64,000 bases of DNA. Source: Hydrurus foetidus (lineage: Eukaryota). This document shows, piece after piece, positions 4,510-39,908 of this stretch (position 1 is the first letter of the stretch; the number at the start of each line of letters is the position of its first letter). Where the stretch lies: contig UYFQ01000683.1 in NCBI GenBank assembly GCA_900617105.1, forward strand, positions 1-64,000, in the 5' to 3' direction. Below the pieces are notes generated by a model. The model did no database searches. It was not told the DNA's origin and saw only the letters and a list, made by a program, of their open reading frames with translations. The translations under genes and the position numbers were made by a program.

Positions 4510-5243
4510 TGTTGAACAAAAAAACAAAAAAAGTTTAGTATGTAAAAGCGAAGTCGAAAAATCAAAAAGGTCGCAAAATGCATCACCGTCTTCTTGAAAG
4601 TCATTTGCCATGATAAGATAAGTATTCCTCAAGAGTTCTCGCGATCTGACGAAGCATCTCATGACTTTAAACTAGATTCTGATCTTATCACGCATGTACT
4701 TACGTGCATGTCATGACTGTGGTTTAAAATGCTCTCTCAAATGCTTTGATGGTCAATTTATTGAGCCCTCTTGCTTTGATAATTCAGCGTTATAATCCAC
4801 TCTACATCAGCTGTCTGTACGATTTCTGCGGTACTATCAATTCACTGTCTCTCAAGATAAATCCCGACAACCTGGTGTTGAACAAAAAAACAAAAAAAGT
4901 TTAGTATGTAAAAGCGAAGTCGAAAAATCAAAAAGGTCGCAAAATGCATCACCGTCTTCTTGAAAGTCATTTGCCATGATAAGATAAGTATTCCTCAAGA
5001 GTTCTCGCGATCTGACGAAGCATCTCATGACTTTAAACTAGATTCTGATCTTATCACGCATGTACTTACGTGCATGTCATGACTGTGGTTTAAAATGCTC
5101 TCTCAAATGCTTTGATGGTCAATTTATTGAGCCCTCTTGCTTTGATAATTCAGCGTTATAATCCACTCTACATCAGCTGTCTGTACGATTTCTGCGGTAC
5201 TATCAATTCACTGTCTCTCAAGATAAATCCCGACAACCTGGTG
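4510..5243. repeat. Perfect tandem duplication, 366-bp period (2 copies)
   Basis: TGTTGAACAAAAAAACAAAAAAAGTTTAG starts at 4510 and at 4876. Both copies end ...ATCCCGACAACCTGGTG (4877 and 5243). No differences seen by eye. Confidence 0.95.
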
Positions 5244-6416: not shown

Positions 6417-9223
6417 TCATGGCATTACTATGCATGCTTGAAGCATTGATGCACCCATACTGTACAATAGTCTCATCCATTGTGAGTATGGTAATGTAAT
6501 ATCTGCTCGTCTATCGTCATGTTTGTTGACGTGCCAGCCAAGTAAAGATGTATAGTAGTTTGGTATTTCTTTACCATCTTTAATTGTTGTGGTTATTTTA
6601 TGTATAAATGATCCAGGTAAGATAGATGATGTTTGATCATATCTACCATATTCAGGTACACGTACAATATATTGATAGTTTCCTGCATGTAGAAACGCTG
6701 CAGTGACACCCCGTAGTGGGATGTTTGGTATTATAAAATTATTTGCAATATTATTTATTAGAAATCTATGGTGCACTTTGAGGGTGTCTTCATGTAGGCC
6801 TAAGTGATCATACATAATTCTTCTTTCTGCGATGTCCTTATTTTGCCTAGAGAATCCTTTGTGAATCGTCACCGATTCGTACCTGCATCAGCACGTGTCT
6901 ACATTCCTGTGCAGTCTCAAATGGTGCTTCGGATACATTTGCCCAGTTGGAAAATCCCCCTGGGGACTCCCTATTATGACTAGTATTACGTTGGAGTGAC
7001 ATTAACTTCGTAATAGCTCTTTTTGATTATGTGAATACTGCCCTACATTTGCACCTTGACCTGCCTTAGGTCCGATTTGATCTAGTATATTTCTAGGTAG
7101 GTCTATGTTAAAAGGTTGTTTGGGATTTTGAGGTTGAGCTTGTTTTACATGAGGTGTATTATCCTTTCGTGCCTTATTATTATCATATCCCTTATCACCC
7201 TTAGGTTGCATAATATGGGGCCATTTGCAGGTTGGGTTTTTGCATTGACCACGTTGGTATGCATAGCAGTATTGTGCCACTTGTTCTTGTGGTGGTGATC
7301 CCGCAGCTTTATTTTTAGCTATGTATTTTGGGATGGGATCCACGGTCTTATTCGTATTTGATGTCGAATTTGTACCATAGAAACCAGCTAACTGAGCATT
7401 ATCCCATGATGGATCTGGGGATGGATGTGTGGTCCTTACCGCTGCTAATTGTACTGTTGCGAGGTGAGGTGGTAATGCATCTGAGATCCAGAGCATGTTT
7501 GCCATGGTCATATCGTATCCAAGTCTATTGTTCATTGAGGCTGCGAACGACGATACGATGAGCGGTCTACCATCATCTGAGAAGTGTTTAGCCAAAAATG
7601 CAAGTTTGATTTCGCTAGAAATCTTTTTGTTATTTGCATATGAAAGATTATTAAATAGTGTCTCCAAACTAATAAATTCACTACGCAGTGTCTTAGATTG
7701 ATCAACCTTGAATGATGTGATGTTCGGCAATTTGTATATCTTGCTGGCGTTGACCAAATACATGACTTATTATTTGATGAAAGGCTATAACACCATCTCG
7801 TTCTTGATGTGCCTCGTCAGTGACATGGTGACGACAATCTTTTTGAAAATGCTGTCTAACAGTGAGTACAGTCGGTCAACATCATATGTATAGTAATATA
7901 TGTCATCTTCTTCGAGTACTAGTATAGATATTGTGAAGGAGAAATCGACTCCTGCTACTACTGGTGGCTGATATGGAATTACTTTTTGTTTCCTATACCC
8001 GTGTTTATTCTTATCTTGTTTTAGAATTGGGCGAGTACGGTGTCCTTGGACGAGTGTAAGGAGTCCGAGGGTATTTAGCAGGGAGTGGACTTGTCGTAAT
8101 CGGTAGAACTTGTCGGAGGAGTTAGGATGGATTTGAGAGTTGTTGAACATTTGAATTACTGCGGCAGACGTATCCAACCACTTTGATCTCTTGACTCTTC
8201 TATTATGCTTATCTTTTTTCTTTTTATATTCATTGTCAGAAGAAGAGGAACTGTAATCCTTACATGAACTTTTGTTATTGTAGTGTGAGGTTTCGGAGCT
8301 TGATAACGATGAGTCATTTGATGAATCCGCAGATTTCTTTTTCTTCTTAGGGATGCGACGTGCATTGCCCTTGCTCTTTGTGGAATCCTCCGAGGATGGA
8401 TCGTCTGACGAATCAGAAGGATCTCCTTTTTTACGACAGTTTTTCCGTGAGGAACTCTTACTTTTATTATTGGAATTGCTATCTACCTTCCCATCATTGT
8501 CGTTGTTACTTGTGCTCCCCGGCACAAGGTCAGCTTCATTCCTAGGGCTATCTACATCATCGTTATTAGATGTTGTATTGGAGGACTTTTTGGAAGATTG
8601 TCGAGACGATTTGTCTGACTTCTTCTTTAACATGCGACGTGTGTCGTGTAATTCCATTTTACGTAATTTTAATAGCTCATTCCCGCGTCTATCCAATTTA
8701 GAGGCTCTTTCATTGTCCTCTTCATCGGAAGAGCTATCGTCATCATTTTGTCGACGTGTAGAAACTTTTTTGCGAGGGTTTCCCCTGTAACCTTGATTGG
8801 TTAAATTTTTCTCCCCATTTTCTATGCTGTCTAATGATGTTAGGTCGCCGATAAGTCTATTACTAGTCCGATCTAAGGGGTTACGAGATGAGGACTGATC
8901 GCTATAAGGCTGATCCGTCCTTACTGCGATGTCACCTATCGCATAAACGGGAGGGACCTTCGCAGCATCATCCCTGCTGCCCATCAATCGAACTAGCGCC
9001 CTATCTAATGCTGCAAGAAATGCAGGCGAATTTTCATTCACTTCGATTGAAGCAATGATTTTGGCGGCAATGGGCTCTGGGACGATGGGCTCCAGTAATA
9101 GTGGCGGGCTCTCCTCAGTATCCTCATTGTCGCTGTTGGTCTGTGACCGAGTCGTCATCGACATGATGTCGATGGAATATAATGATGTGGCTGGTCTTCA
9201 AAATCCTTGGCCAATCGCTACCA
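6417..9223 (-). mobile_element. Degraded LTR-retrotransposon internal region: gag-like ORF with CCCH zinc finger and putative PBS
   Basis: ORFs 9164-7785 and 7763-7002 are contiguous across a frameshift. LRQVHSLLNTLGLLTLVQG resembles Copia gag N-terminal helices. CYAYQRGQCKNPTCKWPH is a C-x7-C-x4-C-x3-H finger. A PBS-like CA|TGGTAGCGA at 9223 lies 59 nt upstream of the ATG. A further ORF 6872-6417 has unknown function, and no pol domains were seen. Confidence 0.5.
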
Positions 9224-11691: not shown

Positions 11692-12072
11692 CAATAGACT
11701 AGACTGAAAGTGAGGTTCGTCCTGTGCAGACATGACAGCAGCTAGCACGAAAGTTGAAATCGAAAACACAAGATCGTATGGTTTAATTTCAAAATGGCAA
11801 ATACATATCATAAAACTTCCTTAAGGACCTATGACCAGTGACTCAGTGCGGTCACGTAGAACTCACCAGATCGGATTTTGGTATGGTGCTGATTGTGCTT
11901 TGATGTTGGGAGTTGGAATGAGTTTGTAAATGATAGAGGATTTGCAGTGGTCTACAGTCATGAACTACCGTAACGCCTATTCTCGAAAATCCGGATTTCA
12001 CCACCCACGGAAAAACGAAAGAATAGGCACTCGACGGTATATTTTCAACTTTTACTGGATTGGGATTAGGCG

Positions 12073-12431
12073 TGTTGGAATGAATGGGCTCACAAGGGCA
12101 TACGTATGTGCCTGTACGGCTATTACAAGCTCCCCACTGCTCTCTCCGAGGGCTCTTTACTCGTCGCAACTCGTTTGCAAGAGAAGAGTTGGTATCGGGT
12201 ACGAGATTGGGTTAATTAGCACTGCAACGGTGCAGTGATTGCAAGTTGTCAAAGTTGTATTGGTACTAGTCGTAGTGTCTCTAGTCTACGTGTGTATGTC
12301 GTATGTCAGGCGTTTCAAACAGCATGCACGTACGACCGAGGGTTAATTCAATACGGATAATAGCTTCACAATTTGTATTTTGTACATCAGTGTATATTCA
12401 GTATACGGTTATTTTATATGATATTACGACA
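12073..12431 (-). repeat. 3' LTR of Copia element
   Basis: Direct repeat of 17976-18334 with 4 substitutions counted by eye. Termini TGTTGG...ACGACA on the + strand. Confidence 0.97.
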
Positions 12432-12441
12432 CACCCCTATG
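12432..12441 (-). other. Polypurine tract (plus-strand primer) of Copia element
   Basis: The minus strand reads ...ATAGGGGTG immediately before the TG of the 3' LTR. Confidence 0.7.
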
Positions 12442-12894: not shown

Positions 12895-15800
12895 TCAGGT
12901 GATGTTGAGTAGTAAATTTCTTAGAGCTCTGAACTGTTCTCCTTGTAGGGGTTTGGTCAGCATATCCGCTAACATCTCTTTTGTCGGTTTGTAAGTCACT
13001 CGTACTTCTTTATTTTTTATCCGGTCGGTCAAGAAAAAGTACCGTATGTCAATGTGTCTTGTCCGTTCGCTGTTCGATCTCCCGTTGGTAATAAGTTGGA
13101 TGGTGGATTTGTTGTCTTGAAATATGATGGCTGGTCTGTTTGTGTATCCTTGGGCTATAATAAAGTATCGGGTCCAAAGCACTTGATTCGCTGAATCGCT
13201 AAGTCCCACCAACTCTGCCTCCGTACTCGACTTAGTTGTAAGTTTTTGAGTGGAGCTTTTTGCATAGATGGATCCTCTGCCGAGGGTGATGGTGCTTCCC
13301 GTATGACTCTTCATGTCTTGGTGGACCCCATATGATGCATCTGTGTAGGAGATGACAGTCAATGGATCGCCAATAGTGAGGGTAAGTCCAAGGTCTCGGG
13401 TACCACGTATGTACTGTATGGTACGTTCCAGCTTCTTCATATCATCCGTCTGAGGCTTCGTCACTCTCTTTGTCAAAAATGCTACCGGCGTTAGGATATC
13501 CGGTCTTGATCTTTTGCTAAGATAAAGCAACTTGGCTGTAATAGAATGAAAGTATTCACGAGCAGAAGTGGTTAACAATGGGTTAGTCGCTTCCGGTAAA
13601 ACCGAAAATAAATCCGGCTTAGCCGGTGTCGGTGACACCCCTAGAATATCCTTACAGTCTTCTAGCAGCTCCTTGATGAATCCTTCCATGTTATAATAAC
13701 TTTTCCAGCTGTCTCAAAATTGAAGGTCATACCTATGTAATTAAGTACTTTTCCTCGATGTTTTGTTAGTCCAGGGTATAGGTTTTCAATTTCATCAATA
13801 ACATAATCAACATGTTTTTCATCACAGCAAGTTATCATCATGTCATCAACGTGGATTATTAGTGTAGTTTGTTTATTATTAGATTCAGTTCTGTTAAACA
13901 CACATATGTCATAAGGGTTAACAGTATACCCTAATAATGATAAGTCATGTGAGATTTTATCATACCATAATTTAGCAGATTCTACACATCCATACAATGC
14001 TTTTTTCAGTTTAACAATGCATGTGCCTTTATCATTAACATATTTGGTATATGATTTATCAATGGATATTAACACTCCAGTCAAGTATTTATTCAGTCGC
14101 ATATATACAGTGTGAGTGCCCTCTAAAGGCATATCACTATTCAAAAATGCACCAGGAAAATCAATTGTAGCAATCGATCTACATTCATATGCAGCAATTG
14201 AAGCAACAATAAACACACTAGTAGTACTAACAGTGGGTGAAGATCCATTATCATATATATCTCTGTCTTGTAAGTGGCCTCCTGCTACTAATCTAGACTT
14301 AAGCTTATCGAATTTTCCATCTGCTGTATACTTATCCTTTAAAAACATGCTACTAGTTATGATGTTACTTCTTTGAGTCTGACTAAGAGAGCTGATCAAC
14401 ACTCCCTCCCAAACATCTTTTTCACACATCTGTTGCATCTCTTTTCTAATGGAATCTACAGCAATATTGCCTAACTTATCAATGCTATCTTTAACAGTCA
14501 TGTTGAAAGCATATGAAAAATTAGTTGATGGTACAGGAATGGCAGCATTACATCTTATAGTGTAATTTCCTCTCCTAGCTACCCATCTACCTGGTTGGTG
14601 ATTTCTAGCGCTACGTCTCAAAGCAGGCTGTTCTATCTCAGGTAGTGCATCAGTATGTACGTCATCAATAGCGTACGTATCATCAATAACATCAGGTAGT
14701 TGATATGGTGTAAGTACTTCATGTTCAGTGTACACATCATTTACATCAGGTGTAACGTAGTCAGTTAAAGTATCGTCATACTCAACATGTTCAATGTTCA
14801 CATCATCAGTTTCTATCTGTGTGTAGTCATAATCATCTTGATTATTTGTTTCACTCATATCATAAATATCGGGTACATCAGGTATGTTATTAATGTCATT
14901 CATGTCATTCATTATGTATGGAACGGGTGCATCATGCTGTACGTTCATTTCATCAACATAAGAATCATCATACATTTCATCAGCGTGAGGTGTGTCTGCA
15001 TGGCTAAATCTAAGCATGTTATGATCGTATATATTTTCATCGTCATAGTCAAGTCCATCATCAAATATCACACGCTTATTCTGCTCAAACACAGGTTGAT
15101 TAGTATTATTATTTCTATTAATCTTTCTCTTCTCAGATAATCCATTAATATACTTAATAACTTCATCAGGCATAGGTAATGATGTGGCTTTAGTACGTTT
15201 TACTATCTGTTCGTTACTGAGTAACATGTAATACCAAGATCCTTCTAGGTTGCCTGCACTCATCAGAGCGATAGCACCTGAAGTTCTGGCTTTATTACTG
15301 TTATCAATATTGTCAGAATGTACTTGAACGTAGTCACCAAAACCATGTTTCAGTTCTTTATCTACGTTAATCTTTCTACCGTATAGTTTCTCCCTAGGGC
15401 TAACATAGTCAACAGTGTTCCTAGTCGGAACCAACACTATACGGTTAACAGCATATCTAACTAACCATCCTACTAACTTCTCGGTTAACTTAAAAGGTAA
15501 TGTGTTAATGACTGCTCTGACTCTCTCTTTAATCTGTCTTATCTTACGCTCAACTACTGTGACTGCCTCACCTGCACCTGTCGTATCTAGTGCAGTACCT
15601 ATACTAGCTAACTTAGTTTCAAACCAAACTGAATTGATTGCGCCTTCGCCATCAACTCTAACTAGATTTAATCTGAAACCATACTTAGTAATATGCCTTA
15701 TGTCGCTCTCTAGGCTAGTCCACAGTGTAAGGTTGGCTCTATTATTTAACTTATTTACCATAACGTATTCTAATGGCTTAACAACGGCAATTAAAAATGG

Positions 15801-16703
15801 ATTGCCGTTAACAAACATAATGTCTATATACATTATTTGGTTCAAATCCTGAATATTACAGTGGTTGCTCATCTTCAACCTGTGCCTGATGGCTTGGCGT
15901 TTTGCCCTTTAGGGAGCCCAAGTCAGGACCCCAGATATCCAACGATCTAACTACGTCTTGTGCTGTAATGTTACTGTTAACTAGTTTACCTTGTCCTATC
16001 AGCTTAACTAACTGACCTGGACTAACGTAACCTAATTTCCTCTGATATTCTCTAGCTAACTCGGCCTGTTTGACCTGTCTAACTGTGTACTTTTTCTTCT
16101 TATCGTTCACAGTAGTAACTAACATTAACTTAGGTTTACTTACCATAGTACTCAAGTTGCATATATATATATTATATTTAATATCCCTATTGAAATAGTA
16201 ACAACATCCACCTTTTCTTATTTGCAAACTGTAAAAATCTCCCTTACAATTGTACTTCACTGAGTAACTATTATTTACCATGTTTGCAAAAGATAAAATG
16301 TTGGCTATACAGTTTGGGTCGTAGTAAACTATTCCGAAATCCGTCCTACCGCACTCTGTAATCGTTAACGGTTCTCCTCTAGAGTTTACTCCATTAACTA
16401 CCATAGGTGTGTGTGCAGGTACAATATCATAAAACAGTGTATCGGTTCTAAATACAGATTCACCAGCACAGGTATCAAGCAACAGCAAATCATCACCAAA
16501 CACGTCAGGATTGTCTGTGATATCTATGCTAGATATGTTACTAGCTACTGCTATGATATCCGTCTTTGAATCTTTGTCATCTATGTATTTTATTTGTACA
16601 TATTTAGATATACGTACGTTTTTATGATTATTATCCACAACATTAGTCACACTATTATTCACATTACTAGCTATGTGATCATGTAAAGAATCATATAAGT
16701 GAC
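12895..16703 (-). CDS. pol: Copia pol polyprotein (protease, integrase, reverse transcriptase, RNase H), interrupted by two single-base frameshifts (~15860, ~13689)
   Basis: Protease LLLDTCAGESVF; integrase YIDIMFVNG...RVDGEG...VVERKIRQIKERVR; RT KLKSRLVAGG, IDFPGAFLN, KLKKALYGCVES, IIHVDDMMI; RNase H YTDASYG, KSSTEAEL, FQDNKS, RHIDIRYFF, MLADMLTKPL. Confidence 0.95.
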
Positions 16704-17936
16704 TTACTTTCCCTTTCCTTTGCCGGGTGGTGTCGTGTTCTTGCCTCCTGGGCTCTTGCCTAGCTCCTCCCCCCAGTATTGGGCTATCTGCTCTGCTGCT
16801 TCTCCTCTGCATTCAAATGCAAAGTGTCCGAATTTACCGCAGTTGTTACAAGGACCACGCTTGTATCCCTTTGGTGGTGTGGCTGTGGCTGTGTAGGCAG
16901 CGACTGTATGGAATCCCTTCTCGCTGCTAGTACTGTCGGGTGAGTCGGCCCCATCCTTCACCCACTTAGCGCCAGGCGCGCTCTTCCCGTTATGTCCTCC
17001 GGGATATCCTCCGCGACCTCCTTTCTTTCCTCCTCTACCAGTCATGGAAAAAGCGTTCGCACGATCCATGGCTCCAGGAGAATTATTATTCTTCTTGGTC
17101 GGTTTGTACTTGGATGCCTCGATGTAGGCGCTCTCCAAACAGTCGGGCCAAGTCTTCAGACTATTAACGTAGTAGTTCTTGAACTCTGCGTAATGGCTGT
17201 TCAATCCCAGTATAAACTTGACAGCCATTATACCCTCCGGGTAGATTTCATCTAGCCCCGTCCTGCCAGCCGCCTCAAATGCTTGTTGGATAGCAGTGAG
17301 TGCCGACTTGAAATTGGTCAGGTACGTGCTTAGATGCTCGTAGGGTTGCATTATCAAATGATCATAACGCTGTTGGATGTTATGCATTTGATGTTCTGCT
17401 CCAAGAGTAGAATCTCCCACATGTGTTGCCAGTATCGCTTGCAACAATTTGCGTGGGTTTTGCTCCGGTTCTGCTTGAACTCCTGCAGCCACTTCCTTCA
17501 CTCGAATCTTCGAGCTTTCGGACATCTGTCCTACCATGGCTCCGTAAAGGTTCTGCTTATCCTCTTCCAGCTTAGTTCTATTCTTGAAGAACTCTACTTG
17601 TTCGACCTCCCCGAGTTTTCTCTCGGTTGGAGTAGCTCCTTCAGCAGGTGGCTCGGGTATGGGTAGTACGGGATAATCTCCTAAGGTTCCGTCCGCACCA
17701 AAGATGAGACTTACTTTCGACTTGAAAGTAGTCATTGAATACTCCTTCATCTTTCCCATAAACTTGGTAACCGTTCCAGGGACAATGTCCTTTCCCGGTG
17801 GTAGATCCAAGTATGTCCCAATGGTCGGGATGCTTCCCTTATGATGGTTCCCAGCGCCAGCTCCTCTTCCGCGACCAGCAAAATATCCTCCTCCTTTACC
17901 ACGTCCTTGTGGCGGAGGGTTTCCTCTCCCTTTCAT
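16704..17936 (-). CDS. gag: Copia gag (410 aa) with CCHC zinc knuckle
   Basis: Intact ORF starting 40 nt after the 5' LTR, with RGG-rich segments and CNNCGKFGHFAFEC (CX2CX4HX4C). Confidence 0.92.
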   Translation of the reverse strand: MKGRGNPPPQGRGKGGGYFAGRGRGAGAGNHHKGSIPTIGTYLDLPPGKDIVPGTVTKFMGKMKEYSMTTFKSKVSLIFGADGTLGDYPVLPIPEPPAEGATPTERKLGEVEQVEFFKNRTKLEEDKQNLYGAMVGQMSESSKIRVKEVAAGVQAEPEQNPRKLLQAILATHVGDSTLGAEHQMHNIQQRYDHLIMQPYEHLSTYLTNFKSALTAIQQAFEAAGRTGLDEIYPEGIMAVKFILGLNSHYAEFKNYYVNSLKTWPDCLESAYIEASKYKPTKKNNNSPGAMDRANAFSMTGRGGKKGGRGGYPGGHNGKSAPGAKWVKDGADSPDSTSSEKGFHTVAAYTATATPPKGYKRGPCNNCGKFGHFAFECRGEAAEQIAQYWGEELGKSPGGKNTTPPGKGKGK

Positions 17937-17964
17937 GGTTGAAATATCTTATTGCAACCTATGA

Positions 17965-17975
17965 AGTGCTAATTA
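17965..17975 (-). other. Non-tRNA primer-binding site complementary to LTR positions 18116-18126
   Basis: Minus-strand TAATTAGCACT directly abuts the LTR end and is the exact reverse complement of AGTGCTAATTA within the LTR. There is no TGG (tRNA CCA complement). Confidence 0.7.
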
Positions 17976-18334
17976 TGTTGGAATGAATGGGCTCACAAGG
18001 GCATACGTATGTGCCTGTACGGATATTACAAGCTCCCCACTGCTCTCTCCGAGGGCTCTTTACTCGTCGCAACTCGTTTGCAAGAGAAGAGTTGGTATCG
18101 GGTACGAGATTGGGTTAATTAGCACTGCAACGGTGCAGTGATTGCAAGTTGTCAAAGTTGTATTGGTACTAGTCGTAGTGTCTCTAGTCTACGTGTGTAT
18201 GTCGTATGTCAGGCGTTTCAAACAGCATGCACGTACGACCGAGGGTTAATTCAATACGGATAATAGCATCACAATTTGTATTTTGTATATCAGTGTATAT
18301 TCAGTATACGGTTATTTTATATGATATTACAACA
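17976..18334 (-). repeat. 5' LTR of Copia element
   Basis: TGTTGG...ACAACA termini, followed by TSD AGGCG. Confidence 0.97.
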
Positions 18335-18550
18335 AGGCGTACATATAATACATAGGAAGCAATAGCTATTTGTCAGGACATCTCTGATTATTATGACATT
18401 GACTCCCTCAACTCGAGACTGGTATTTCTCGAATAATTAAGCTGGAAATAATATCGACCCTTCTCACAGTGTAGTACCGTCGAGATGACGCCATTTTTCA
18501 GTGATAATCCAGTCTATTGGATTTTGCTGGGTGCATCCTAGTTTCCTGCT

Positions 18551-21500
18551 ATGTCGGGATGCACGGTATGGGTTTCATGTGATATATTTCGCAGGGCAGA
18601 CATTCTTATCGGAGGTGCCCGAGAAGTGACCGCACCGGGTCAGAACATAAGAGAGGGTATAGAGCTTCTACTAAAAGGTAATCTCACAAATGATGGGGAC
18701 AATGCCGCATCCCGGACGGGTAGTGTGGACGCGTCAACCTTGCTCGCGAAAGGATTTACAATGTTGCGCAATAATCCTTACGAGGCTCTCGGACTGCAAG
18801 CGGGGGCGAAGACACAAGAAATACGGAAAGCATACAAAAAAGCAGCTTTACTCTATCACCCCGACAAAAATCCGAAGACGACACCACTGTTCCAAGCAAT
18901 TCAACTCGCGTGCGACAAGCTATCAGATAGAGAGGAGAGAGTAGAAGTAGAGAGAGAAGTTGAGAGACGCCAGCGAACGTCAGTGGCTCCTGTTGCATCC
19001 GTGAACAAGTCATATTCATACAAGCAAGATCCTCAGCAAAAGAAGCAAAATAAAGAGAAAACATCCAGCTCACAATCGCGACAGGAAGAGTCTACTCCTC
19101 AGTTCAAGAGGGACAATTTATATGAGCGTTACTATTCCGATGAGCCGAATGCAAGAGGCGGTGCAGGGAAATCCCAGGTGCCTTCGCAGCAAGATTATCG
19201 ACAACGTCATAACGAAGCCGTTGAGGAGGTGACGAAGAGGGCGAAGTATGCAGCCGAATCTGCTCGAAGATGCGAATACGAAATGAAGGCCAGAGATGCC
19301 GCTGAAAAAAGAGCATTTGAATTAAAATTTGTCGCCATGAGGGAGGCGGCAGCTCAGAAGCAGCGGGACAAGGACGGACTCGTGAAGGATGGACAGAAAC
19401 AATATTTCGATGAACAAGCAAAATTAAAATTGGAAAGGATTGCGAAAGAAAGAGCGGTTGCGGAAGCAGCCATGGCAAGTCGAAGAGCTATGTACAGCAA
19501 CATCACATCAACAACTCCTGACTCTAGTGTTCTACCGAGCAGTTACATGTACAGAAAGGCCTATCCTGAAGCAGCAAATCTCCGAGGGCTCAAGCTTGCG
19601 AGTCCACGTTCATCGAATGTTCCAGGGTTCAAAGCGCCCACTTCATCAGCAGGCGCGAAGGTGAATACAGCTGACGGAAGGCATAGCGATGCAGGAAGCA
19701 AGGATATACCTGTGACTGTGCCTGTAAAGGAATGTGAAGGTGTGAACGTACCGCAGACGAGCGGCAGTTGCAGTGCTTACAGCAAATCTCAAGCGACAAG
19801 AACCCGCAAGCACATCGTCTCCATCCCAGGTGACTTCAGTTGCGCAGCAGTCAGTGACTCAGCAGTGGAGCTGGAGTGGAAGAAATCCGTAGTTTCTAGT
19901 GTTCCTGTGCTCATTCAACTGAGCTGGCGGAAGCAATGCGCCCTTGCCCAGTGGCAGTCTGCAACAAGATTGATTAGTGGACAGAAATGTCGCAAGAACA
20001 ATCTTGACTTGGGTTCAGTGGGAGGGTCGCTCTATGAGTTCCGCGTAAGGGCCATCGAAGATCTGCCAGGAGGAATGCTTGGTACGATAATGCTTCGATT
20101 TAGTCGGTCATCTGCAGATAGAATTAAGTGAACCGTCTGTGCGCTGCTTCATTCCACTGCATATAAGACAACGGATCGTTATTACAGTGCTGAAATTGCT
20201 CACAATCGACTGCAATTGATACTTGTGTTATCACCTGACTCACAGTACACTATTTTCCTGAACACTTTTCAGGCGATCGCAGCGAATGGAGTAGCATCAT
20301 ACTCGTGGGCACCTTTAAGTCGAAACAGAGCAACACTGCCGCGTACGCTCCAGGACTGCCTATCAAAGAAAAAATGTCGAAAAAGTATGTTCCAACAAAG
20401 ATTGTTCCTCAGCCGCTGGTTCCTCCAGTTGTTCTCCCCACGCCCCAGCAGGTGTTCAAGAAGTCAGAACACCTCTCCTCTGCATGGTCCCCTGGGATCA
20501 CTCCTCTTCATGTCCCCGGTGTGGGCGTTCCAGTAGCAGCTGTCAACGGCAAGGGCTCCATTCCCGTTCCCCCGACCAACCCCCTTGTAGCTACACCCCC
20601 TTCCACTGCTTTGAATAGGTACCCCTCTTACATCCACAGAGAATCCAAACCCTCCACAGCAAGGGTTAACCTTGTAAGGGATCCAGTAGCCTCCAGAAGT
20701 GGTAGTATTTCGACTGGGGTGGCCAATAACTCTCAGGCAGCAGCCACTGTCATAGCAGCGCCGCAGCCTCCTGAAAGTGCTAAAGTCGAGACCAGTCCTG
20801 CGGCGGGTCTGTCTGGCCGGAGACAATCCGGCTTTCACCGTGAAGCAGTCGATCTCCATAAAGAGGATGTTGCACATGTTGTGGATGATATAACGATGGG
20901 GGTGAACATGGTGGAACTGAGTGATCAGGAGGACAGCGAAGACTTGATATCAGACGATGACGGCAGCAACAGCACCACCAGCAACAACAGCAATAGCAAT
21001 AGCAAGATCGCCGCGGTCAAATCTTTTAGAGAAAAGCGCCTCGCCCAACCCGTCACCCTCAGCCACAAATCAAGCGGGTCGTCCCCACTGCTGAATAATT
21101 CGTTCACCCGCACGGCTTGGGAGGGTATGTCGTCAGGGGCAGCTGTTAAGGGCCCTGGACTGGACATCACGCCAGCTGCACTCCCTAAACCCTCATTGCC
21201 TAAGAGAATGAAATTGAGGGAGAAAAAGAGGGAGAGCGCTTCTCTCTCTTCTGATGAAGAGTACAGCGAGGACATTGAGGAAGATGAAGAAAGTGTCATG
21301 AAGTCCATGTCGCAATCCTTTGCAGAAATAGAGCACACAGAAGCTGACGAATTCATCGAGGATGAAGAAGAAAAGGGAGGGAACTCTTTACCGGACGGCC
21401 CACGGCTAAAACCTCGAATGCACTCTGAGATCGAGATTTCTGCGGAGAAAAAGTCTCCGACACACAGAGTGCGGATTGCGAAGAAAGTATTGAGGAAAAA

Positions 21501-29590: not shown

Positions 29591-32500
29591 TCACCGATAC
29601 CCTCTGCCAGCTAGAGCCAGTACATGCGCTTCTGCACAGGTGGCCAATCCATCAGCTGCTTTGGAGACGTCATATCCTCCTTCCAGCACACTCACCACTC
29701 TCCCTCCGCACACCTCATCAGCAACCACTTGAATCCTCTCCGCCATCCAGTGGAAGTCTATTGGTTTAAGTCCTACTTGACCCCCTATAGGGTCAGTTGA
29801 TGCGCCATCAAATCCCGCACTGATGAATATTATATCCGGTTTAAACGCCTTTAAAGCTGGCATTATGATGTCTTCAAAGGAGATACGAAACCCACTCCTA
29901 CTCCTCGGTTTGCCTGATTTAAACAGAGGGTTCCCAGCTCTCACTGTGGGATATACGTTGACCAATACTCTGTTGGGATGTCTCTCATCTGCCCCTAAGA
30001 GACAGCAGCTAGACGAGGGAAAGAAGAAATCTTTGGGGCCATCGTACTGGAGATGCACTGACGAGTAGAAGGCGTGAGGGTCGCCTTCAAATATTTCCGC
30101 GGTGCCGTTTCCAAAGTGGGCATCAATATCCACCACTGCGAACCTTCTTAAGCCGTATTTGATACGCGCGTAATACGCACCTATCGCTACGTTATTCAAT
30201 AAGCAGAAACCGTTGTTAGAGCATCCTCTGGTACTACCAAAGCGACCCGCGTGATGACCAGGTGGGCGTATGCAGCAGAACACGTTCTTCACCCCATGCA
30301 CCTCTGTGACCGCAACAGCAGTATTCGCTGCTACGCTGCTGAGCATCTCCGGTGTGACCACCCCCAATGCGGCACCCGATGTTGAAGTTGAAGTTGCTGT
30401 GACCCCCACCTTGGATCTGGTGAGAGAGCCGGAGCTAGCTGCGATGGTGTTTGAAGGAAGAACTACTCCACAGCTGTCACTTTTGTTCTGCCCAATAGCA
30501 GCACTGACTTTCTCAGAGGTGCTTTTGTTATCATGACCAGCAGATGTAGATGTGGAGGCAGAGGTAAAGGCAGTGTCATCGATGTTCTGACTAAAAGTAG
30601 AGTCCATGTCAGCCGGCTCAACGATATGTGCTTGTGCTTGTGCTTGTTGCTGAAGTTGTAGTTGAAGTGTCGCACTCTCCTGTACTGCACAGATGCTCTC
30701 CTCTTCACGAGAGACAGAGACATTAATCCGGTTGAGGGTCCCGTCCATTTTGTCCGTGACTACCGCAGATACGGTAGGATCCTGCTCTTGAATAGCGTTA
30801 TTACACTCCTCCAAAAAGCCCGTCATGAGTTCGCTTATCTCTTCGACATCCATACTCTCTAGTGCACTTACCACGTCGCTCCTGAAAGACCCACCGACAC
30901 TAGTACTCACGGCGGACAAAGAGGGACGAGGGGAATCAGACTCTCCCCTCGCTGCGTCAGTGACAACCTCCGGATCCAGTGAAGGTCTCTGGGGAGAGTT
31001 GGAATTAGACGACGACAGACAAGATGCGACTCTTTCCTCTGCTGTCAAGCCAGCGCACTCCATCCCTTCAAGATCCGACCCAGCAAGCAAGTCACACCCC
31101 ACCACACAGCCCATAGTCACCGCATCCACTCCCGCACACACCACAGCAGCAGCAGCTATAGCCGCCTCGAAGGAACAGGGGGAAATGTACGTATCTGATG
31201 CACCCACATCCAGGTCCTCCCACCAACCAGGACCAGGGACCACACTGCCCTCCCCACAGTGACTTATGAACTTATCCCCAGAGATAAACCTTCCATTGAT
31301 GCGGTGGATTTCCCCAAAGGGATCGCCCTCTCCCTCGTCATCAAACGCTGAGTCAAGTGAGTGATTAGGTGTTTCCGAAGTAGGGTTATCTCGTCTTCTC
31401 TTCGACCTTGGGGGGAGGACTGCCACTCCTTTGGGAGGAATCGTGGGTCGACTTGTGAGGACGTCTATGCTGCTTTGTCTGATGTTGCTATCGCTATTGT
31501 CACTGCTACTACTTGTGCTAGTGCTACCACCTCTGCTAGTACAGCTGCTATGTCGGCTACTGCTACTAGCAGCACCTTCACCAACAGTATTGCTGATGCT
31601 CTGCTCAATTTCTGCAGAAGAGCCTTTGACAGATTTGGTTAGAGAATGTTCTACTGGATGATTGACGTCTCCCTCTACAGACATCAGATCAGTTATCGCT
31701 TGGTCTGATGCACTTGATGACGAATCTGCAGCAAATTGCACTGTGGTGCTATCTTGACTATACTCTACTACCGGGACTAATTCGCTGTCAAAGTGTGCAA
31801 TGGTCTCTAGCGGCTTGCCAGTATCATCGTTGACATCGTCCTCATCAGCTGCTTTATGACTGAGCTGATCCGATCTCTGTTCAGTCGCAGAAACCTCGCA
31901 GTCCATGGATGCGGTACCGTCCGATCCCGTCACATCCGGTTGAACTATACAGGGTGCATCGTAAATTGGGGGAATGTCCGAGTAATTATTCGCAAAATTG
32001 GGTGAACTTGATGCACTCGATGAGGTCTGTTCTTGTAGAGCTAGGTCATGGGATGTCCCGTGCGTCTCCCCCTCTGCAGGCAATGGCACATCATCAGGAA
32101 TGGGGCACACGGCAGCGCAGAGCTGTTTCGATGGATCTCTGTCTGACTCCTCAATTCCCAGTATCAACTTAGCGGCTATGTCACCCGGTAAGAAGGAAGG
32201 AGCATGAGATGAGATAGACATAGACATTGAAGAAGGCGGGGGGTCATCTGCAACGGCTGAATCGTCGAGATCCGCATTACCCTCGCTATCATCATCCAGA
32301 CCCGCCTCATCCCCTTCCCCTTCCCCTTCCTCCTCGTCCTCTTGGAGTTCCATCCCAGTTTCAGGTCCAAGTTCCGGTTCTAGGTCCGCTTCGAACTCGT
32401 TGTCTAGGTCATTGCGTGTGTCTAGTGCATTAGACTCGGAGACGCTTCTCCTCTTCCTGTGTCTCTCCTGTCCGACCCACACCTCATATTCAGGTCGGTT

Positions 32501-35500
32501 GAGAAGGAATTTAGTTAGTTGGCTCCGTAATGGTGCATTGCCCCCTGACACTCTACACTGCCTGAGAGTGTTCCAAACAGACACGTGTCCCTTCTTTAGA
32601 GGCTTGTTCGGCTTCCCAGTCAGGGGATTTAGGGACTTTTTGAAGGCCTTCGCCCTTCTGCCCCTTTTGGCAGGGACATATCCTGGGACTGGGACTGGTA
32701 CTTGGACTGGGATATTTAAGATAGTGACGTCACTGTTGGTGTGGCTGTGTAGATTGCCAGACAGCGCAGCTGCATCAAGAGCAGTGGATTCTGTGGATCT
32801 TGGATTAGAGGCTGGTACCGTGAGAGGGTTGGGAATCACAGTCAACTCAATGGCAGTGGCGGTGGAGGTAACGTCTACATTGGTGCTGACCGTAAGGTCC
32901 CCTTGGATACTGGCATCGACACTCCCGTCTACTGCTGCAGCAGCTGTTTGCGCTGGTGACATGATGTTCTGTTCGATCTCCCTCTCTTTGATATTTCCGA
33001 CGAGCAGTGCAGCCTTCCCCTTCGTCTTGCTACCCCTGGAGACGGAGACTCTCTTCACACTGGATACGTCACTACTATCACTGTCTGACTCTTCGTTTCT
33101 GCTACGCTCCATCCTCAGCATTTCCTCTTGATTGATGTAGACATCTCTGTCCGGATTCTCAGCGATAAAAGTGGTTAAGTCGCATCGCATTGGCGCCTCC
33201 TCTCCCTCGACCTTCAGCAGTCGCACGTTATCCCACATGCAGATACGCTCTGAGGCGTAACTCAGCTGAGGCGCATCATCACCAGCAATAGAAAGCGCCA
33301 ATATTCTCGTCAACTCGTCATCATCATTGTAGTGCAGATCTTGACCTGTATAGATTTCGTACTCTGGTCTAGTGGCTAGGAATTTTAAAAGCATGGACCG
33401 TATAGGCGCATTGCGACCTGATAGACAGCTCTTCCTCCTTGAGTTCCACAGGGGAATGGGACTGGCCATGGAAGACTCGAGTGTCTGTGCTGGCGTCTTC
33501 CCCACCTCCTTCTCCTTCTTCTTGGACATAGCGGAGACAGCGAGAGAGAGAGCCTTCAAGGGCTTGAGAGGGACGCCCAGATTACCGCACACAAGATGCA
33601 GCTTAGCAGCAATGCAGGGGGCTAACTTCTCTACTTTGCACTCAACTGCAACAGCGTCTACCAGGTCGGGTGGTGCCGGAGTGGCTGAAGCTACCGTGAG
33701 TTCCGGCTGTTTCGTCTCGTCTGCTGCAGGTGATGGATAAATACTGCTTATGCCCCTCACTGCGCTGCTGCCTCGACCTCGCCCTCGTCCGCCTCTCCCT
33801 CTTCCCCTGCCTCTTCCAGACTTCAAAGCGTCCCTCTCTGACTTCATCATCCTGGGAACGAGGGGCTCTTGGCCGTCATACACGCAATATTCCGGCCGGT
33901 TTAAGAGGTATTCCTGCAGATCTTTACGGTAAGGCGCGTTGCCTCCTGCTACTCTACACTGCTTGACTTTGTTCCACAAAGACACTCTGCCCTCTTCCTC
34001 TCCCTCCTCCCCTTCAACAGCATCCTTGCGACTCTCCTCTTCTTCCCTCTCATACTCCTCCGACACTCTCACTCTCGCCCTGTCACCCACTCTGCGCGGC
34101 GTAGGGAGGAAGACAGAAGCTTCGAAATGTTTCTTCTCTTTCTCTTTCTTCACACGCACAGGCACTGTGACGCCTTTCATGAGCTCATCCTTTTCTAGAA
34201 TGAGCTTGTCCATCTTATCTGCTATCTCCACTCTATCATGCTTCTCCAACTTATCTTTCTCAGGAGCTGCAGTGCCGATAGATACGCACCTCAAACTGTC
34301 TCGAGACAGAGCGGAGAATCGAGATTTCTGAGACTCAGCGGTTGTGCGTGGCTTGACTAGCTTACTAGAGCTGGATATCTTCTTCACAATCTTAGCCTTG
34401 GAAGCGACTCTTCTCCTGTCCCCATCCACATCTGCCCCTGCTACCCTCTGTCCTGTCCAGATGACATACTCAGGCTTCTCGTCTAGGAAGGCTTTTAAGT
34501 CTTTCTTCATGGGTGCGTTACCACCTGATACTCTGACCTTACGCACTGTGTTCCATACGGAGATGCGCCTGAATGCTGAGAATGCTCCTAGATTGATCTT
34601 GTGCTTCACTTCTGGTTCGCCATCTGCACTGTCGTGTGCTGATGCATCCATGGCAGCATAGTGGCTTACACTGCTCCTCTTTGGCACACCGTGCACCGGT
34701 AGAATGTTCTTGCCCTTGACTTGGCTAGCGCTTTTGGCGGGACGACCTAACAACTTCAACGAGCCGTCTCTGAACTTAGAGCAAACTGCACCAGATGGCA
34801 GGTCGTCCATGGCTTTACGCCTTTTAACCCCTCCAGTGCCGGATCGGTCCCTCTCCTCCTCGTACCCACCATGATAGTCCATCGCAGACTTGTCCATCCT
34901 ATCATTGCATGCGGAGGATGTGTAGATATCCGCTGCACCAGATGGCTGCACGGCTTGTCTGAGCCACTGGACAATGTCCCACTGAATAGGAGGGGTTTCC
35001 TCCTTGTCGTCCTGACCGGTGTACACCAAGAAGTGGGAGTTACGCGATAGGCATTCGCGAAGGTTCTTGAAAAAAGGTGCAGCATATCCACCCACTCTGC
35101 GGCATCTCATGGTGTCCCACATCCACACCCTGTCGGACCCGTTAGGAGAAAAGTCCCTGGGCCATTCTTCTTCTCGGAATGCGAGCAGTGCATCAGCCAC
35201 ATTCTGGGGAATGGAGAGGGGATTGGAGGATGTGGAGAAAACTCTCTGTCTCACTTTACTGTAAAGACCTGCATCGCTTTCATCTTCGTAGCCGTTACTA
35301 GCACTCAGAATGCCTGAGGAGGAGGTCGAAGTGCAACCTCCTGCTCTCACACTGGATCGGGCATTTCTCCTCATCATCGCAATGGGCAAGGGTTCACCAC
35401 TCTCCTCTGCTGCCGCCCTGATGTCCGCTTCATCTACTGGGATGTCTTCATTGAGCTCTGATGAGAACTGCACGTCAGCCTCTGTCTCCCCTGTCATAGC

Positions 35501-37388
35501 GTGGTCCTTCATGGGCAGATAGGGAGGGTTATGCAGACTGGCAGCTTTGGCTCTTTGTCTGAGATGGTCGATGTACTCGTCAGCATGCACGAGAGCCACT
35601 GACTCCCAGAAGCAGTCTTGCAGAGCGATGCTGCTGTCTCTCGCAAGGCATCTTATGTCCAGCTTGTTGGACCCTTCTCTCGGTGCGGTGCATCTTTCTC
35701 TCTCGTACATTTCTCCCTCAGCCCTTAAGGACGACTCCTCCGTCACACTCTCATCGAAACTGTTGCGATGGGTGGGAAGATCAGAACTCTCGGATACTGA
35801 TCCTTGCTTGATGTCGAAGGTGCCGTTGACAGCTGAAAGGCATTCCACCTTGCTCACACCAGAGTCGTTACACGTGTCCTCATTCAGGCATAGCGTATCT
35901 CCTATCACCTTCTCCACATCTTCTGTATTCCCCTTACACCTCTTGGAGAGTGCGAGTTGGAGTGACGTCAGCTTTGCCATTATTTTCACTATCCGGATGC
36001 TGCGCTCTGGCATTTTACGCGGAACTAAATGAGATAAATTCCTAGGATCGCACAGAACAACAGTCACTGACTTTTTGATGACTGGCTGGTCGTCACTCAG
36101 GCCATCAGTAGTGATGAATATGCCACTCAGAGCGTTGCCTTCTACTTTTCTGCAGATGTCTTCTATTACAGACTCCACACTTTCTGGCAGCATTCCATTT
36201 ATCCCTATCTCCCCCTCCACATCACTCTCCAGCTTACTCTGCACTGCGAGAGGCACGACTGCATCATCATATATATCGCGGATATTAAACAGTTTCTCAA
36301 ACTGATCTGTCCTACTTTTCGCTGCTAATCTCTCAAATTCCGATTTCTTCGATGCAATCTTACACCCCGCGTGAGTGGATGCGTACTTGAACAACAAGTG
36401 GCTGGACAAACGCATGCCCTCATAGAGAAGGCGTGAAAATATCAAACTCTCCTTGGGAGTTCTGACTGCTGATGGGGAGAGCAAGAGTGGCGTATTGGCC
36501 TTGGCATTTTCCACCCAGTGGGTCAGCTTGCTCATGAGGTTGGCAGTGTCACTGCTAGTGTGAGTAGCGGTGGCAGACGTTCTGGCCTTGCCCTCGCTGC
36601 CCTCATGCAGTCTCGCAGCCTTTGCCTTATTGTCACTGTCTCTGTCTGCAGTGGAACCTGTGAGTGCAGAGATGTACGCCTTGAACTTTATGAGCAGGGC
36701 TTTGTCCCTCTCCGCCACTGTGAGCATCTCACGGCAGCGCTTGGACTCCTTTGTGGCCAGCTGTATCCTCGCCTTCTCTGTTAGGCGGGCTAGCTTAGAA
36801 GCCTCTTGGTGCTCTGCGAAAGTCTTCTTGGCATTAGAGATTTCGTCTCTGATGCGCTTGAGTTTCTCAGAGAGTTCCCTTTCCTCCACCTCCATGTTAC
36901 CGATGAAGGCGCGTGACTCCACTTGCTCCTGTTCTCTAGAGTTCTCAGAGACCTGATGCTTTGCCTGAAGGAACCCGACCCTCTGGGATAGAGCGCCTCC
37001 CTCTCCGGTGAAGCGCTTTATCCTCCTCACCTCCATGGCACCCTTGACACGCACCGTATCAAAAATTTGTGCGATTTGACTTGTTGTTCTCACTTTTGCA
37101 TCTACCACTCCTAGGATGGAACAGAGGAGCTCTCTTCCTGAGTTGCACCTGCTACTACTACTGACATGGTTGTTGTTGTTGTGGATAACTTGCTCTCTTG
37201 CATCGTGTTCACTCTCTTCACCGTCATTCTGAACTGCTCCCGTTGTCATACGACATTTACTATCCCTGTCTCTGTCCCCGTCCCTTCCTCCTTGTGTTTC
37301 GCTGCTAATACTACCAGAGCGACTTAGACCATCGACATTCCTCTCAAAATACGTAGAAGAGAGAGCAGATGATGAAAATGAAAAAGAG

Positions 37389-37426
<38 letters not shown>

Positions 37427-39908
37427 AGAGGTAGGGAACATGTCATGTGCAGCGACTTGAACACCGCACTTCGGGATATCTTCTGGGCTTGTGATTGATC
37501 CCAAGGCAAAGTCGTCACTGATCGTCTGCTGAGCGTTTCTAGCTCGAAGCACTTCAATCTGTTCAAACGAATATAACAGAGATGAGTAGAAGCGAATAAG
37601 GAGCTTATCACACTGTAAAAGGTGAAACAAATCGTGGTGGACACATTTCAAGTACGCACCTCATATGGTAATAGAACTTGAATAATTCCTGGTTTGAGTT
37701 GTGAAGACAGAGACGTCCCATACGTTCTCCCTCCAGTACTTCCAGCTCGTAGGAGTTTTTCCTCTATGCCCATTAGCAGATCGCTTTTCATTTGGTTTAT
37801 TTGTTTGCTATTATCTCTGTACTCTTCGCTGTTACCGCGACCCAACTTGTGTGTGAGTTGTGAAAAACCTGGACCTGAGGATGAGGCAGAGGAAAAGGTA
37901 GTGCTGCCGCGTTTCATCAATTGCAGCCAGCTCTCCATGCGCACTCTCTGAGTAGCAGCTGTCTCCACATCATCATTTCCGATGACGTCGCCCTCTGGAA
38001 ATGCCTTGATGAAAGCTAGCATCTTGGATCCCAAGAGATGTCTCCCTGGAACATCTGCCATGGAACAGTCCTTGGACTCCCCCCTCCCGAGACGTTTCAC
38101 AATGTCCTTCTTATCCACACGGGACACCTTCGCACCAACAGCAGCAGCACTGTCACAATCCATATCTGTGTGGGATGCTGACAATCTTATGACGTCATCT
38201 TCATCCTCTATACACACACCAACTGTTTCATCCATTGCTGAGTTGCTCTCCGTATCTAGACTGTCAGATCGCGCCAGAAGTCGAGCACTCAACAGTGGCT
38301 GACTTTTGATCATTAGAGATCCAAGGTCCGCTCCATTCTCGGAATCTGACGTGTCTACGGTCTTAGGTGCACTGGTTGCGAGAGCTGCAATCTTCCGCAC
38401 TAGTGGGTGTTGAAAAGTATACTTCCGCTTCGTTCTGATTTTATCTATTTGAGTCACAACCTCTTGCACTGCTCTATCACACATCTCTACAGTTGAAGCT
38501 GTGTTTTCATTGACCTGAATGAGAACATCACCTTTTACGGTGCGATCTCCGTTATTGTGTAAGTCTGACACGTGTAAGCCCTCAGGGAAAAAAATCGGCA
38601 CTGCCTCCACTTTCTGTGCAACTTTCTTCTTTTCTTCCTTGACTTTTGGTTTTGCCTTCACCTTCTGTTTTTGATCTTTATCAGTGCATAAATCTGTCTG
38701 AGCCACACGCTGAATATTCCCAGTTCCCAACCCAGACAAAGACAAAGACAAAGACGCATATCCAGAGGCTGCACCAGAAACAGTCCCAGACCCACTTTCA
38801 GTTTGATGTGCCTGAATACAAGAAGTATCTATAAGCTGCCTAGAGTCGGTGCTGATATACTGTCTTGTAGAGGAAGCGCAATTTAATGTTGAGTTTGCCG
38901 AAACCGCACTCGCCATAGACTGTTCTGTAACTTCTTCAACAGATTTTGTTCCTTTTAACAGTTTCACTGATGAACTGGGCTCGCTCGTGCTGGTAGACCG
39001 GGGGATAAATCTAAATAGACCTTGAGCTTGCTTAAGCGACTCTAACGCCATTTTTTTCTTTACGCCATCAGCTGATCGCTCAGTGATTTCGTAGTTTAAT
39101 TCCTGAGGAGAGTAGTTATGTATTTGGTTTGGATCTGTCAGGACCACCTTCACAAGTGGCTTATCTCCCTTCCTCCTAGGTTTCCTCACTTTGATTACAA
39201 TAGGAACAACTGACGGAGGAGAAAATAATGAAGCACTTCCTGTAGCTGTGGAAGCCAGAACAGCTATTTCTTTCGCTGATGATAAACAGTGTGGCTCTGT
39301 GACAGTCATCGGAATGGGAGTCGCCTCAACTTCTAGAATACCAGCACTCTCAGCTGTGCACACTATTTTCTCGGCAACATGATGCAATAAGCTATTATGA
39401 ATGCACTGATCTACGGTCGCCTCACAAGATGCATCAGTGGTGGAATTTTTCCAGGGAGCTACAATACCCTCGGCATCCATGCTGTAACAGATCAACAATA
39501 GAAATTCAGCGATTTACAGGCACGTTTTTTCGTAGAAGTCAACACTATTGCTCTGATAGTCACCTCAGTTCTGGCGCAGCAATGACAATGTCGCAATGAA
39601 TTCCGGCTGTTGTCAGACCTGCACCTTTTAATGGCATCTGTTGCAAATGAATTTTTACTTCAGATGCGACTCATTGAAGCAGTTTCGGTAATGATCGTTT
39701 AAAAAATAATCTAAAATACCTCTGTAAAAGCTGCAGTAGCAACAAATAAATAACTTTTCCCGTTGTTCTCGTCTGAATACATGTCGGCAGATTTGTCATC
39801 GTTTGATGCGATTTGTGAGTCCGTAATCATCGGCGTTGCACAGGGGAGCGCGCTCGCCTCACCTGGAGTGCCCTCTATGATGTTAGAAGAGTCACTCCGG
39901 TACGACAT
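29591..39908 (-). CDS. Giant histone deacetylase-family protein (class II-like Zn-dependent) with six BRK-like repeats; intron 37559-37659; 5' exons uncertain
   Basis: C-terminal IRPPGHHAG, GFCLLNNVAIGA, DIDAHFGNGT, SAGFDG and VLEGGY. Upstream HDAC pieces are SHLVPRKMPERSIRI, VALVHADEYIDHL and DTYISPCSFEAA. ORFs of 616 and 2686 aa join in phase 0 (GAG|gtgcgt...aacag|ATT). Confidence 0.88.

Follow-up and report, generated by a model that had tools for sequence, protein, structure and literature searches.

The window, that is, the whole 64-kb stretch of DNA analyzed here, contains a copia-type element on the minus strand. Its 5' LTR lies at 18334-17976 and its 3' LTR at 12431-12073. Each LTR is 359 bp long with TGT...ACA termini, and the two copies differ by 4 mismatches. 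The 5-bp target-site duplication CGCCT is present at both flanks of the element. The features are as follows, with the basis of each in brackets.

18335..18339, no strand: target-site duplication CGCCT, left copy on the element strand (flank sequence)
17976..18334, minus strand: 5' LTR, 359 bp, TGT...ACA (sequence)
18127..18334, minus strand: predicted U3, 208 nt for a transcript beginning at 18126 (inferred by arithmetic)
18123..18140, minus strand: 7-bp hairpin spanning the predicted start, which can sequester primer nucleotides 1-4 in RNA started upstream (sequence and folding)
18116..18126, minus strand: predicted self-primer, the first 11 nt of the RNA, with C before it (CA at predicted +1) (pairing)
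17965..17975, minus strand: putative primer-binding site (PBS), abutting the 5' LTR and complementary to 18126-18116 (sequence)
17933..17964, minus strand: predicted stem-loop abutting the PBS and taking in the gag start codon (minimum-energy fold)
16704..17936, minus strand: gag ORF, 410 aa, intact, with a CCHC zinc knuckle, 98% to P0121 (ORF, homology)
15856..16812, minus strand: pol part 1, protease-like and pre-integrase region, overlapping gag in a different frame (ORF; no Pfam match)
13662..15908, minus strand: pol part 2, integrase core followed by reverse transcriptase (RT; RVT_2, HVDD) (PF07727, E 7.6e-18)
12895..13713, minus strand: pol part 3, in another frame, encoding the end of RT followed by RNase H (weak RVT_3 match, E 0.056; 94% to P0001)
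12432..12438, minus strand: short polypurine-tract-like AGGGGTG ahead of the 3' LTR, common to many relatives (sequence)
12073..12431, minus strand: 3' LTR, 359 bp, in which the primer 11-mer recurs at 12223-12213 (sequence)
12068..12072, no strand: target-site duplication CGCCT, right copy (flank sequence)

The gag ORF starts 39 nt past the 5' LTR, and pol follows downstream in three pieces whose frame differs from that of gag. Pol part 1 contains LLDT, which we take to be a protease-like motif; the Pfam scan of the window element gave no match to either the PR or the IN domain. The integrase region (IN) precedes RT in pol, which assigns the element to Copia. TG...CA LTR ends, a 5-bp target duplication, an RVT_2-type RT after an integrase-like region, and RNase H in last position were all found, as in Ty1/copia. 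Membership of Gypsy or of the Tf1/sushi group was rejected, since IN precedes RT of the RVT_2 type and the Gypsy order RT-RH-IN is not present. The element is a young Ty1/copia LTR retrotransposon. It is also carried by contigs from biofilm, sediment, and freshwater metagenomes. Together with the RNA-seq match of the neighboring gene and its GT-AG intron, described below, this marks the host as a eukaryotic microbe, possibly an ochrophyte alga and perhaps a chrysophyte. Both frame breaks in pol are absent from close homologues, which read across them, and P0001 (94% to pol part 3) reads through without a frame break. Therefore, the window copy would be defective in pol, or the breaks would be assembly errors; if defective, the copy would need pol in trans.

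Several other features were observed in the window. Two 300-nt copies at 4510-4809 and 4876-5175 are 100% identical and 366 nt apart, as a tandem duplication or an assembly artefact. Long minus-strand ORFs at 390-2583 and 7002-9197, which gave no Pfam match above the cut-off and one of which has a weak CCCH finger, may be remains of other mobile elements. In a 2689-aa minus-strand ORF at 29591-37660, a W...R..V.GGNAP-like motif recurs several times, and the C-terminus of this ORF is presumably histone-deacetylase-like, as judged from a motif. A 65-nt inverted repeat at 45059-45271 is 97% complementary with arms 83 nt apart and is MITE-like.

We then examined the sequence past the 5' LTR. As listed above, TAATTAGCACT occupies 17975-17965 of the element strand and begins at the first base past the LTR. 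Within the 64-kb window, its exact reverse complement occurs only at 18126-18116 and 12223-12213, the two positions given in the preliminary description of this locus. The pairing covers exactly 11 nt, as had been stated there, and ends on both sides. With a start at 18126, R+U5 would be 151 nt and U3 208 nt by arithmetic. The analytic chance of finding this 11-mer in one LTR is 1.3e-4, close to the earlier estimate of about 1e-4 per LTR. When the 600 nt of window sequence preceding gag were dinucleotide-shuffled 100 times, 1 shuffle gave an ACA-anchored inverted repeat of at least 11 nt; this test is looser than the analytic estimate because any ACA end was counted. The window PBS contains no TGG.

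Copies of the element from four DNA runs were aligned at 80% likeness. Positions 17959-17980 were free of variants, and both sides varied, among the 40 listed of 60 variant rows; DNA contigs aligned in this way to the LTR and PBS cannot phase the two arms. In DNA contigs from organism A and from three metagenomes, the summed depth over 18092-18135, where the predicted primer and start lie, was several-fold above that of the remaining LTR. This excess suggests that more families have this region in common than share the remaining LTR, probably further LTR families or solo or short elements.

Relatives were collected at the protein and DNA levels. Gag homologues were found as proteins (56 matches, 28-98% identity). 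Gag-based locus scans of three collections gave no confirmed locus, and the nearest gag families (50-98%) are represented here by their proteins. RNase H and integrase scans of viral contigs gave no confirmed locus, and a PDB search returned no relative. The integrase alignment yielded 76 metagenomic loci, from the best 80 of 132 confirmed stretches, and one contig in a prokaryote bin. This contig (L077), whose bin bears an actinobacterial title, codes for a Copia integrase belonging to the same lineage and is most likely eukaryotic contamination of the bin. Many loci are collapsed one-LTR contigs in which the LTR ends were mostly inferred from motifs. The automatic finder of polypurine tracts and terminal repeats was noisy and recovered the same LTR end in only part of the loci, so that it serves as a partial check. 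The gag start could be set in 49 of the 77 loci and was unusable in 28; 7 of the 49 had less than 200 nt upstream. The tested set consisted of the remaining 42 loci and the window, giving 43 rows. After collapse at 80% integrase identity, 31 families were obtained from the best 80 of 132 stretches, namely the window and 30 metagenomic relatives with 31-55% integrase identity to it. Four loci (L019, L029, L037, and L023) have apparent LTR ends AATA or AACG, not CA, and keep the self-complementary site. AATA and AACG ends were admitted to the family test after four such loci had been seen.

In the blind test, perfect inverted repeats whose loop spans 40 nt or more were sought in the 600 nt upstream of gag, and the second arm of the longest one was scored for position at an ACA end. 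The result was positive in 34 of the 43 rows, compared to 10% of shuffles (100 dinucleotide shuffles per row). Several of the nine misses had non-ACA LTR-like ends or a second repeat at the LTR end. Two of the 34 positives were weak, L048 and L076 (9 nt), and the 9-nt match of L048 is probably due to chance, its LTR being cut off by the contig end.

We also compared the pairing of each PBS with its own LTR and with the LTRs of other families. Among the 31 families, which derive from the best 80 of 132 stretches, pairing of at least 10 nt with the own LTR was found in 27, against 18 of 930 cross-family pairs. The corresponding values were 24/31 against 4/930 for at least 11 nt and 31/31 against 61/930 for at least 9 nt. 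Four families reached just 9 nt (L012, L014, L019, and L076), and L076 has no clear LTR ends. Pairing spans 9-33 nt across the 31 families, with R+U5 of 72-284 nt. The first 9 nt of the sites are 29 distinct sequences, and a TGG site was found in none of the 31 families. In 24 families, an initiator-like CA step is found no more than 1 nt from the 5' edge of the pairing, compared to 4.8 expected.

Changes on one arm were matched on the other in closely related pairs. One substitution is mirrored on both arms in L006/L008 (92% IN identity) and one in L066/L073 (95% IN identity), and a one-base length change is mirrored in L019/L024 (89% IN identity). The window and seven families form a supported 8-row clade (100/97) in an unrooted tree built without named references. 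All members of this clade have complements to their own LTR of 9-18 nt, in letters that are unrelated. In L017, a true 3' LTR with its flank sets the LTR end independently, and the 14 nt past the 5' LTR pair with the LTR. Thus, the complement covaries across related elements, and most of the tested families keep the pairing with different letters. Covariation between PBS and LTR in related families had been proposed in the preliminary description as a check on its reading, and it was found here. As a separate observation, the PBS of L040 pairs with its own LTR over 33-34 nt free of mismatches, three times the Tf1 primer length.

Next, the transcription start was considered. In the RNA-seq runs X21 and X22, which bear the same species label and of which about 6% each was used, depth over the LTR and PBS was zero, and the neighboring DnaJ-domain gene was covered. 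The element was nearly silent in RNA-seq; two metatranscriptome contig sets likewise gave almost nothing, with no pile of read ends. RNA reads matched the neighboring gene at 99%, with a GT-AG intron. This expressed DnaJ-domain ORF, in the interval 18335-20131, lies head to head with the element, about 200 bp away, and the reads confirm that its GT-AG intron skips 20081-20271. Indirect support for a start at the pairing edge comes from the CA step there in 24 of the 31 families. The window reads GC-A at the predicted start, and no TATA was found in it at the usual distance from 18126. That transcription starts at or beside 18126 is thus a prediction from the sequence.

RNA folded from 18126 had a z-score of -3.6, and none of 200 shuffles was as stable. 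The predicted structure is closed by the primer:PBS helix, with a pair probability of about 0.9. The mean probability of the LTR-PBS helix was at least 0.5 in 29 of the 31 families. The helix was also predicted from starts at 18160 and 18200 (0.55-0.77) and was lost from 18140, because the 7-bp hairpin then captures the first bases of the primer. Since the helix forms from several upstream starts, the folding models leave the transcript start unfixed.

These results suggest that, in the manner of Tf1, the 5' end of the element's own RNA serves as the primer for minus-strand DNA synthesis in place of a tRNA. We put the probability of this reading at roughly 0.8, and it is well supported because the covariation is lineage-wide. 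A chance match in this one element is very improbable: the sites are AT-rich and 1 of 100 window shuffles gave an equal anchored match, but pairing of at least 10 nt occurs in 27 of 31 cognate and 18 of 930 cross-family comparisons, and compensatory changes are present. At the level of the lineage, these same two results rule chance out. The LTR-PBS helix could also be purely structural, acting in packaging, dimerization, translation control, or as a U5-leader stem, with another primer being used. The helix forms from several upstream starts and the transcript start is known as a prediction, both of which would suit such a role, as would the hairpin conserved at the PBS position in fungal GalEa, for which the account in PMC5445492 gives the primer as not known. 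However, the paired arm begins exactly at the LTR end without gaps or wobble pairs, CA lies at the 5' edge of the other arm, an alternative tRNA site was seen in none of the 31 families, and the geometry is the same as that described for Tf1 and Tj1 in the text of the source papers. We therefore consider a structural helix unlikely, although it is the least improbable of the alternatives.

Priming by half a tRNA-Ile(AAU), cleaved within the anticodon stem and bound to PBS +3..+10, as in the plant lineage Bianca, was weighed for the window family as a sole or alternative primer. In its sequence, the LTR 11-mer is similar to an anticodon arm. Viral contigs were scanned with the 8-nt core of this 11-mer combined with a T-arm motif; among the 97 loci obtained, ARAGORN found 29 tRNAs, 26 of them Ile(AAT). 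In all 26 genes, the anticodon arm complements PBS +3..+10 over 8 nt (9 nt in 2/26); the 8-nt match was built into the search pattern, and the telling part is that the matches are tRNA-Ile anticodon arms. The preliminary description had found neither TGG nor a recognizable tRNA complement past the LTR. The former stands, whereas the latter has to be amended by this complement of 8-9 nt. Half-tRNA-Ile priming is given for 92% of 260 Bianca elements in the text of PMC6317226, and the PBS shows no variant among close copies (40 listed of 60 variant rows). Against this, the complete 11-mer is absent from all 26 viral genes, each of which is mismatched at PBS +2 and the last LTR base, where the 3' end of the primer would lie. 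Bianca-type priming uses the 5' half of tRNA-Ile, whose 3' end is paired to the PBS, and no such pairing was found with the 26 viral genes. No tRNA gene was found within the 64-kb window. The 30 related families, including the seven nearest, match these viral tRNA-Ile genes over 6 nt at most, and a tRNA primer would give the LTR no reason to retain a perfect, covarying complement. A half-tRNA primer is accordingly improbable, more so than a structural helix and less so than chance.

The proposed self-priming was compared with known systems. In Tf1, according to the text of PMC7175516, RNA bases 1-11 are annealed to the PBS and the RNase H cut falls between bases 11 and 12, and a self-priming geometry is described for Tj1 of S. 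japonicus in that of PMC4600332. The PBS likewise abuts the 5' LTR and complements the LTR in Tf1/Tf2 of S. pombe, Tj1, the Tf1/sushi group, and the Tcn1 chromoviruses, all Ty3/gypsy elements. In contrast to the Tf1 group, the window element is a Copia (IN before RT, RVT_2), its lineage has no fixed primer length (9-33 nt), and the start and cut are predicted here. Exactly 11 nt was therefore rejected as a signature of Tf1, since relatives pair over 9-33 nt. The earlier proposal of a self-priming Copia lineage akin to Tf1 is well supported by the covariation as far as self-priming is concerned, but the agreement with the 11 nt of Tf1 is incidental.

For Copia elements, the preliminary description knew of no account of self-priming. 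Such accounts exist: in the plant lineage TAR, 89% of 203 elements are predicted to self-prime (Neumann et al. 2019; PMC6317226), and the text of the same paper cites earlier proposals for Houba and Osr-1 (TAR, Ty1/copia). The criterion used in that text for TAR is an LTR complement of at least 10 nt starting 0-5 nt past the LTR; the window complement is 11 nt long and starts at +1. Thus, the element resembles plant TAR as a Copia with predicted self-priming. Unlike TAR, which is found in plants and has a single ORF in 79% of scored elements, the window element and its seven nearest families have gag and pol in separate frames, although at 79% the single gag-pol ORF is a weak criterion of TAR. 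A further contrast to TAR is that DNA of aquatic microbes is where the element and its nearest relatives are found. The element is probably not TAR, and we infer an origin independent of TAR from comparison by description.

The diatom CoDi Copia lineages (Maumus et al. 2009; PMC2806351) are described in a main text that is silent on primers. Like them, the window element belongs to Copia of aquatic protists, is of the 5-8 kb class, and has TG/CA ends. Its distant integrase matches look CoDi-like, as we presume. Fungal GalEa has a Conserved Hairpin Site, with neither a tRNA PBS nor an LTR complement, and its authors rejected the Tf1 mechanism in the text of PMC5445492. The element is like GalEa in being a Copia without a tRNA PBS, and the first conserved 9-mer past the GalEa LTR can, in the sequences given there, hold the same TAATTAG core. 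It is unlike GalEa in that the window LTR complement is perfect and covarying. The likeness to Bianca, complementarity over 8-9 nt to the anticodon arm of tRNA-Ile(AAU), is confined to the window family; it differs from Bianca in the mismatched 3' end of the would-be primer and in the absence of the complement from all 30 related families. In the literature searched, to which subscription journals were mostly external, we found no report of self-priming for an algal or protist Copia lineage.

In the mechanism proposed for self-priming, the RNA would start at or next to 18126, and its first 11 nt would pair back to the PBS, leaving 140 nt of R/U5 as the loop. The RNase H of the element would cut past the paired stretch to leave a 3'-OH, and RT would extend this primer through U5-R. 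The PBS would then be re-copied from the primer RNA in each cycle, during plus-strand synthesis. By its title, Atwood-Moore 2006 reports that the self primer of Tf1 is not removed. Re-copying of the PBS would explain why the arms are matched without wobble pairs despite drift in sequence and length (9-33 nt), and would allow a 33-nt match as in L040. Taken more broadly, we lean slightly toward the view that tRNA priming was abandoned altogether in an old, large clade of Copia elements from aquatic protists, and that this happened independently of Tf1/sushi and plant TAR. Each family would self-prime with its first 9-33 nt, a Copia-type RNase H would cut the RNA:RNA duplex, and the PBS would be rewritten in each cycle, with primer and site drifting together.

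To our knowledge, demonstrations of self-priming are confined to Tf1-type gypsy elements, and among Copia it is predicted for one plant lineage. The elements described here would form a third lineage, which is diverse and carries compensatory variants of natural origin. Independence from host tRNA primers would then have arisen repeatedly or, as PMC3601003 speculates of hairpin priming in its text, be ancestral. Self-priming in these elements would imply that a Copia RNase H is able to cut RNA duplexes. LTR finders that demand a tRNA PBS will miss or downgrade the clade, and the pairing predicts a transcription start for every family. The elements would also escape silencing by tRNA fragments at the PBS.
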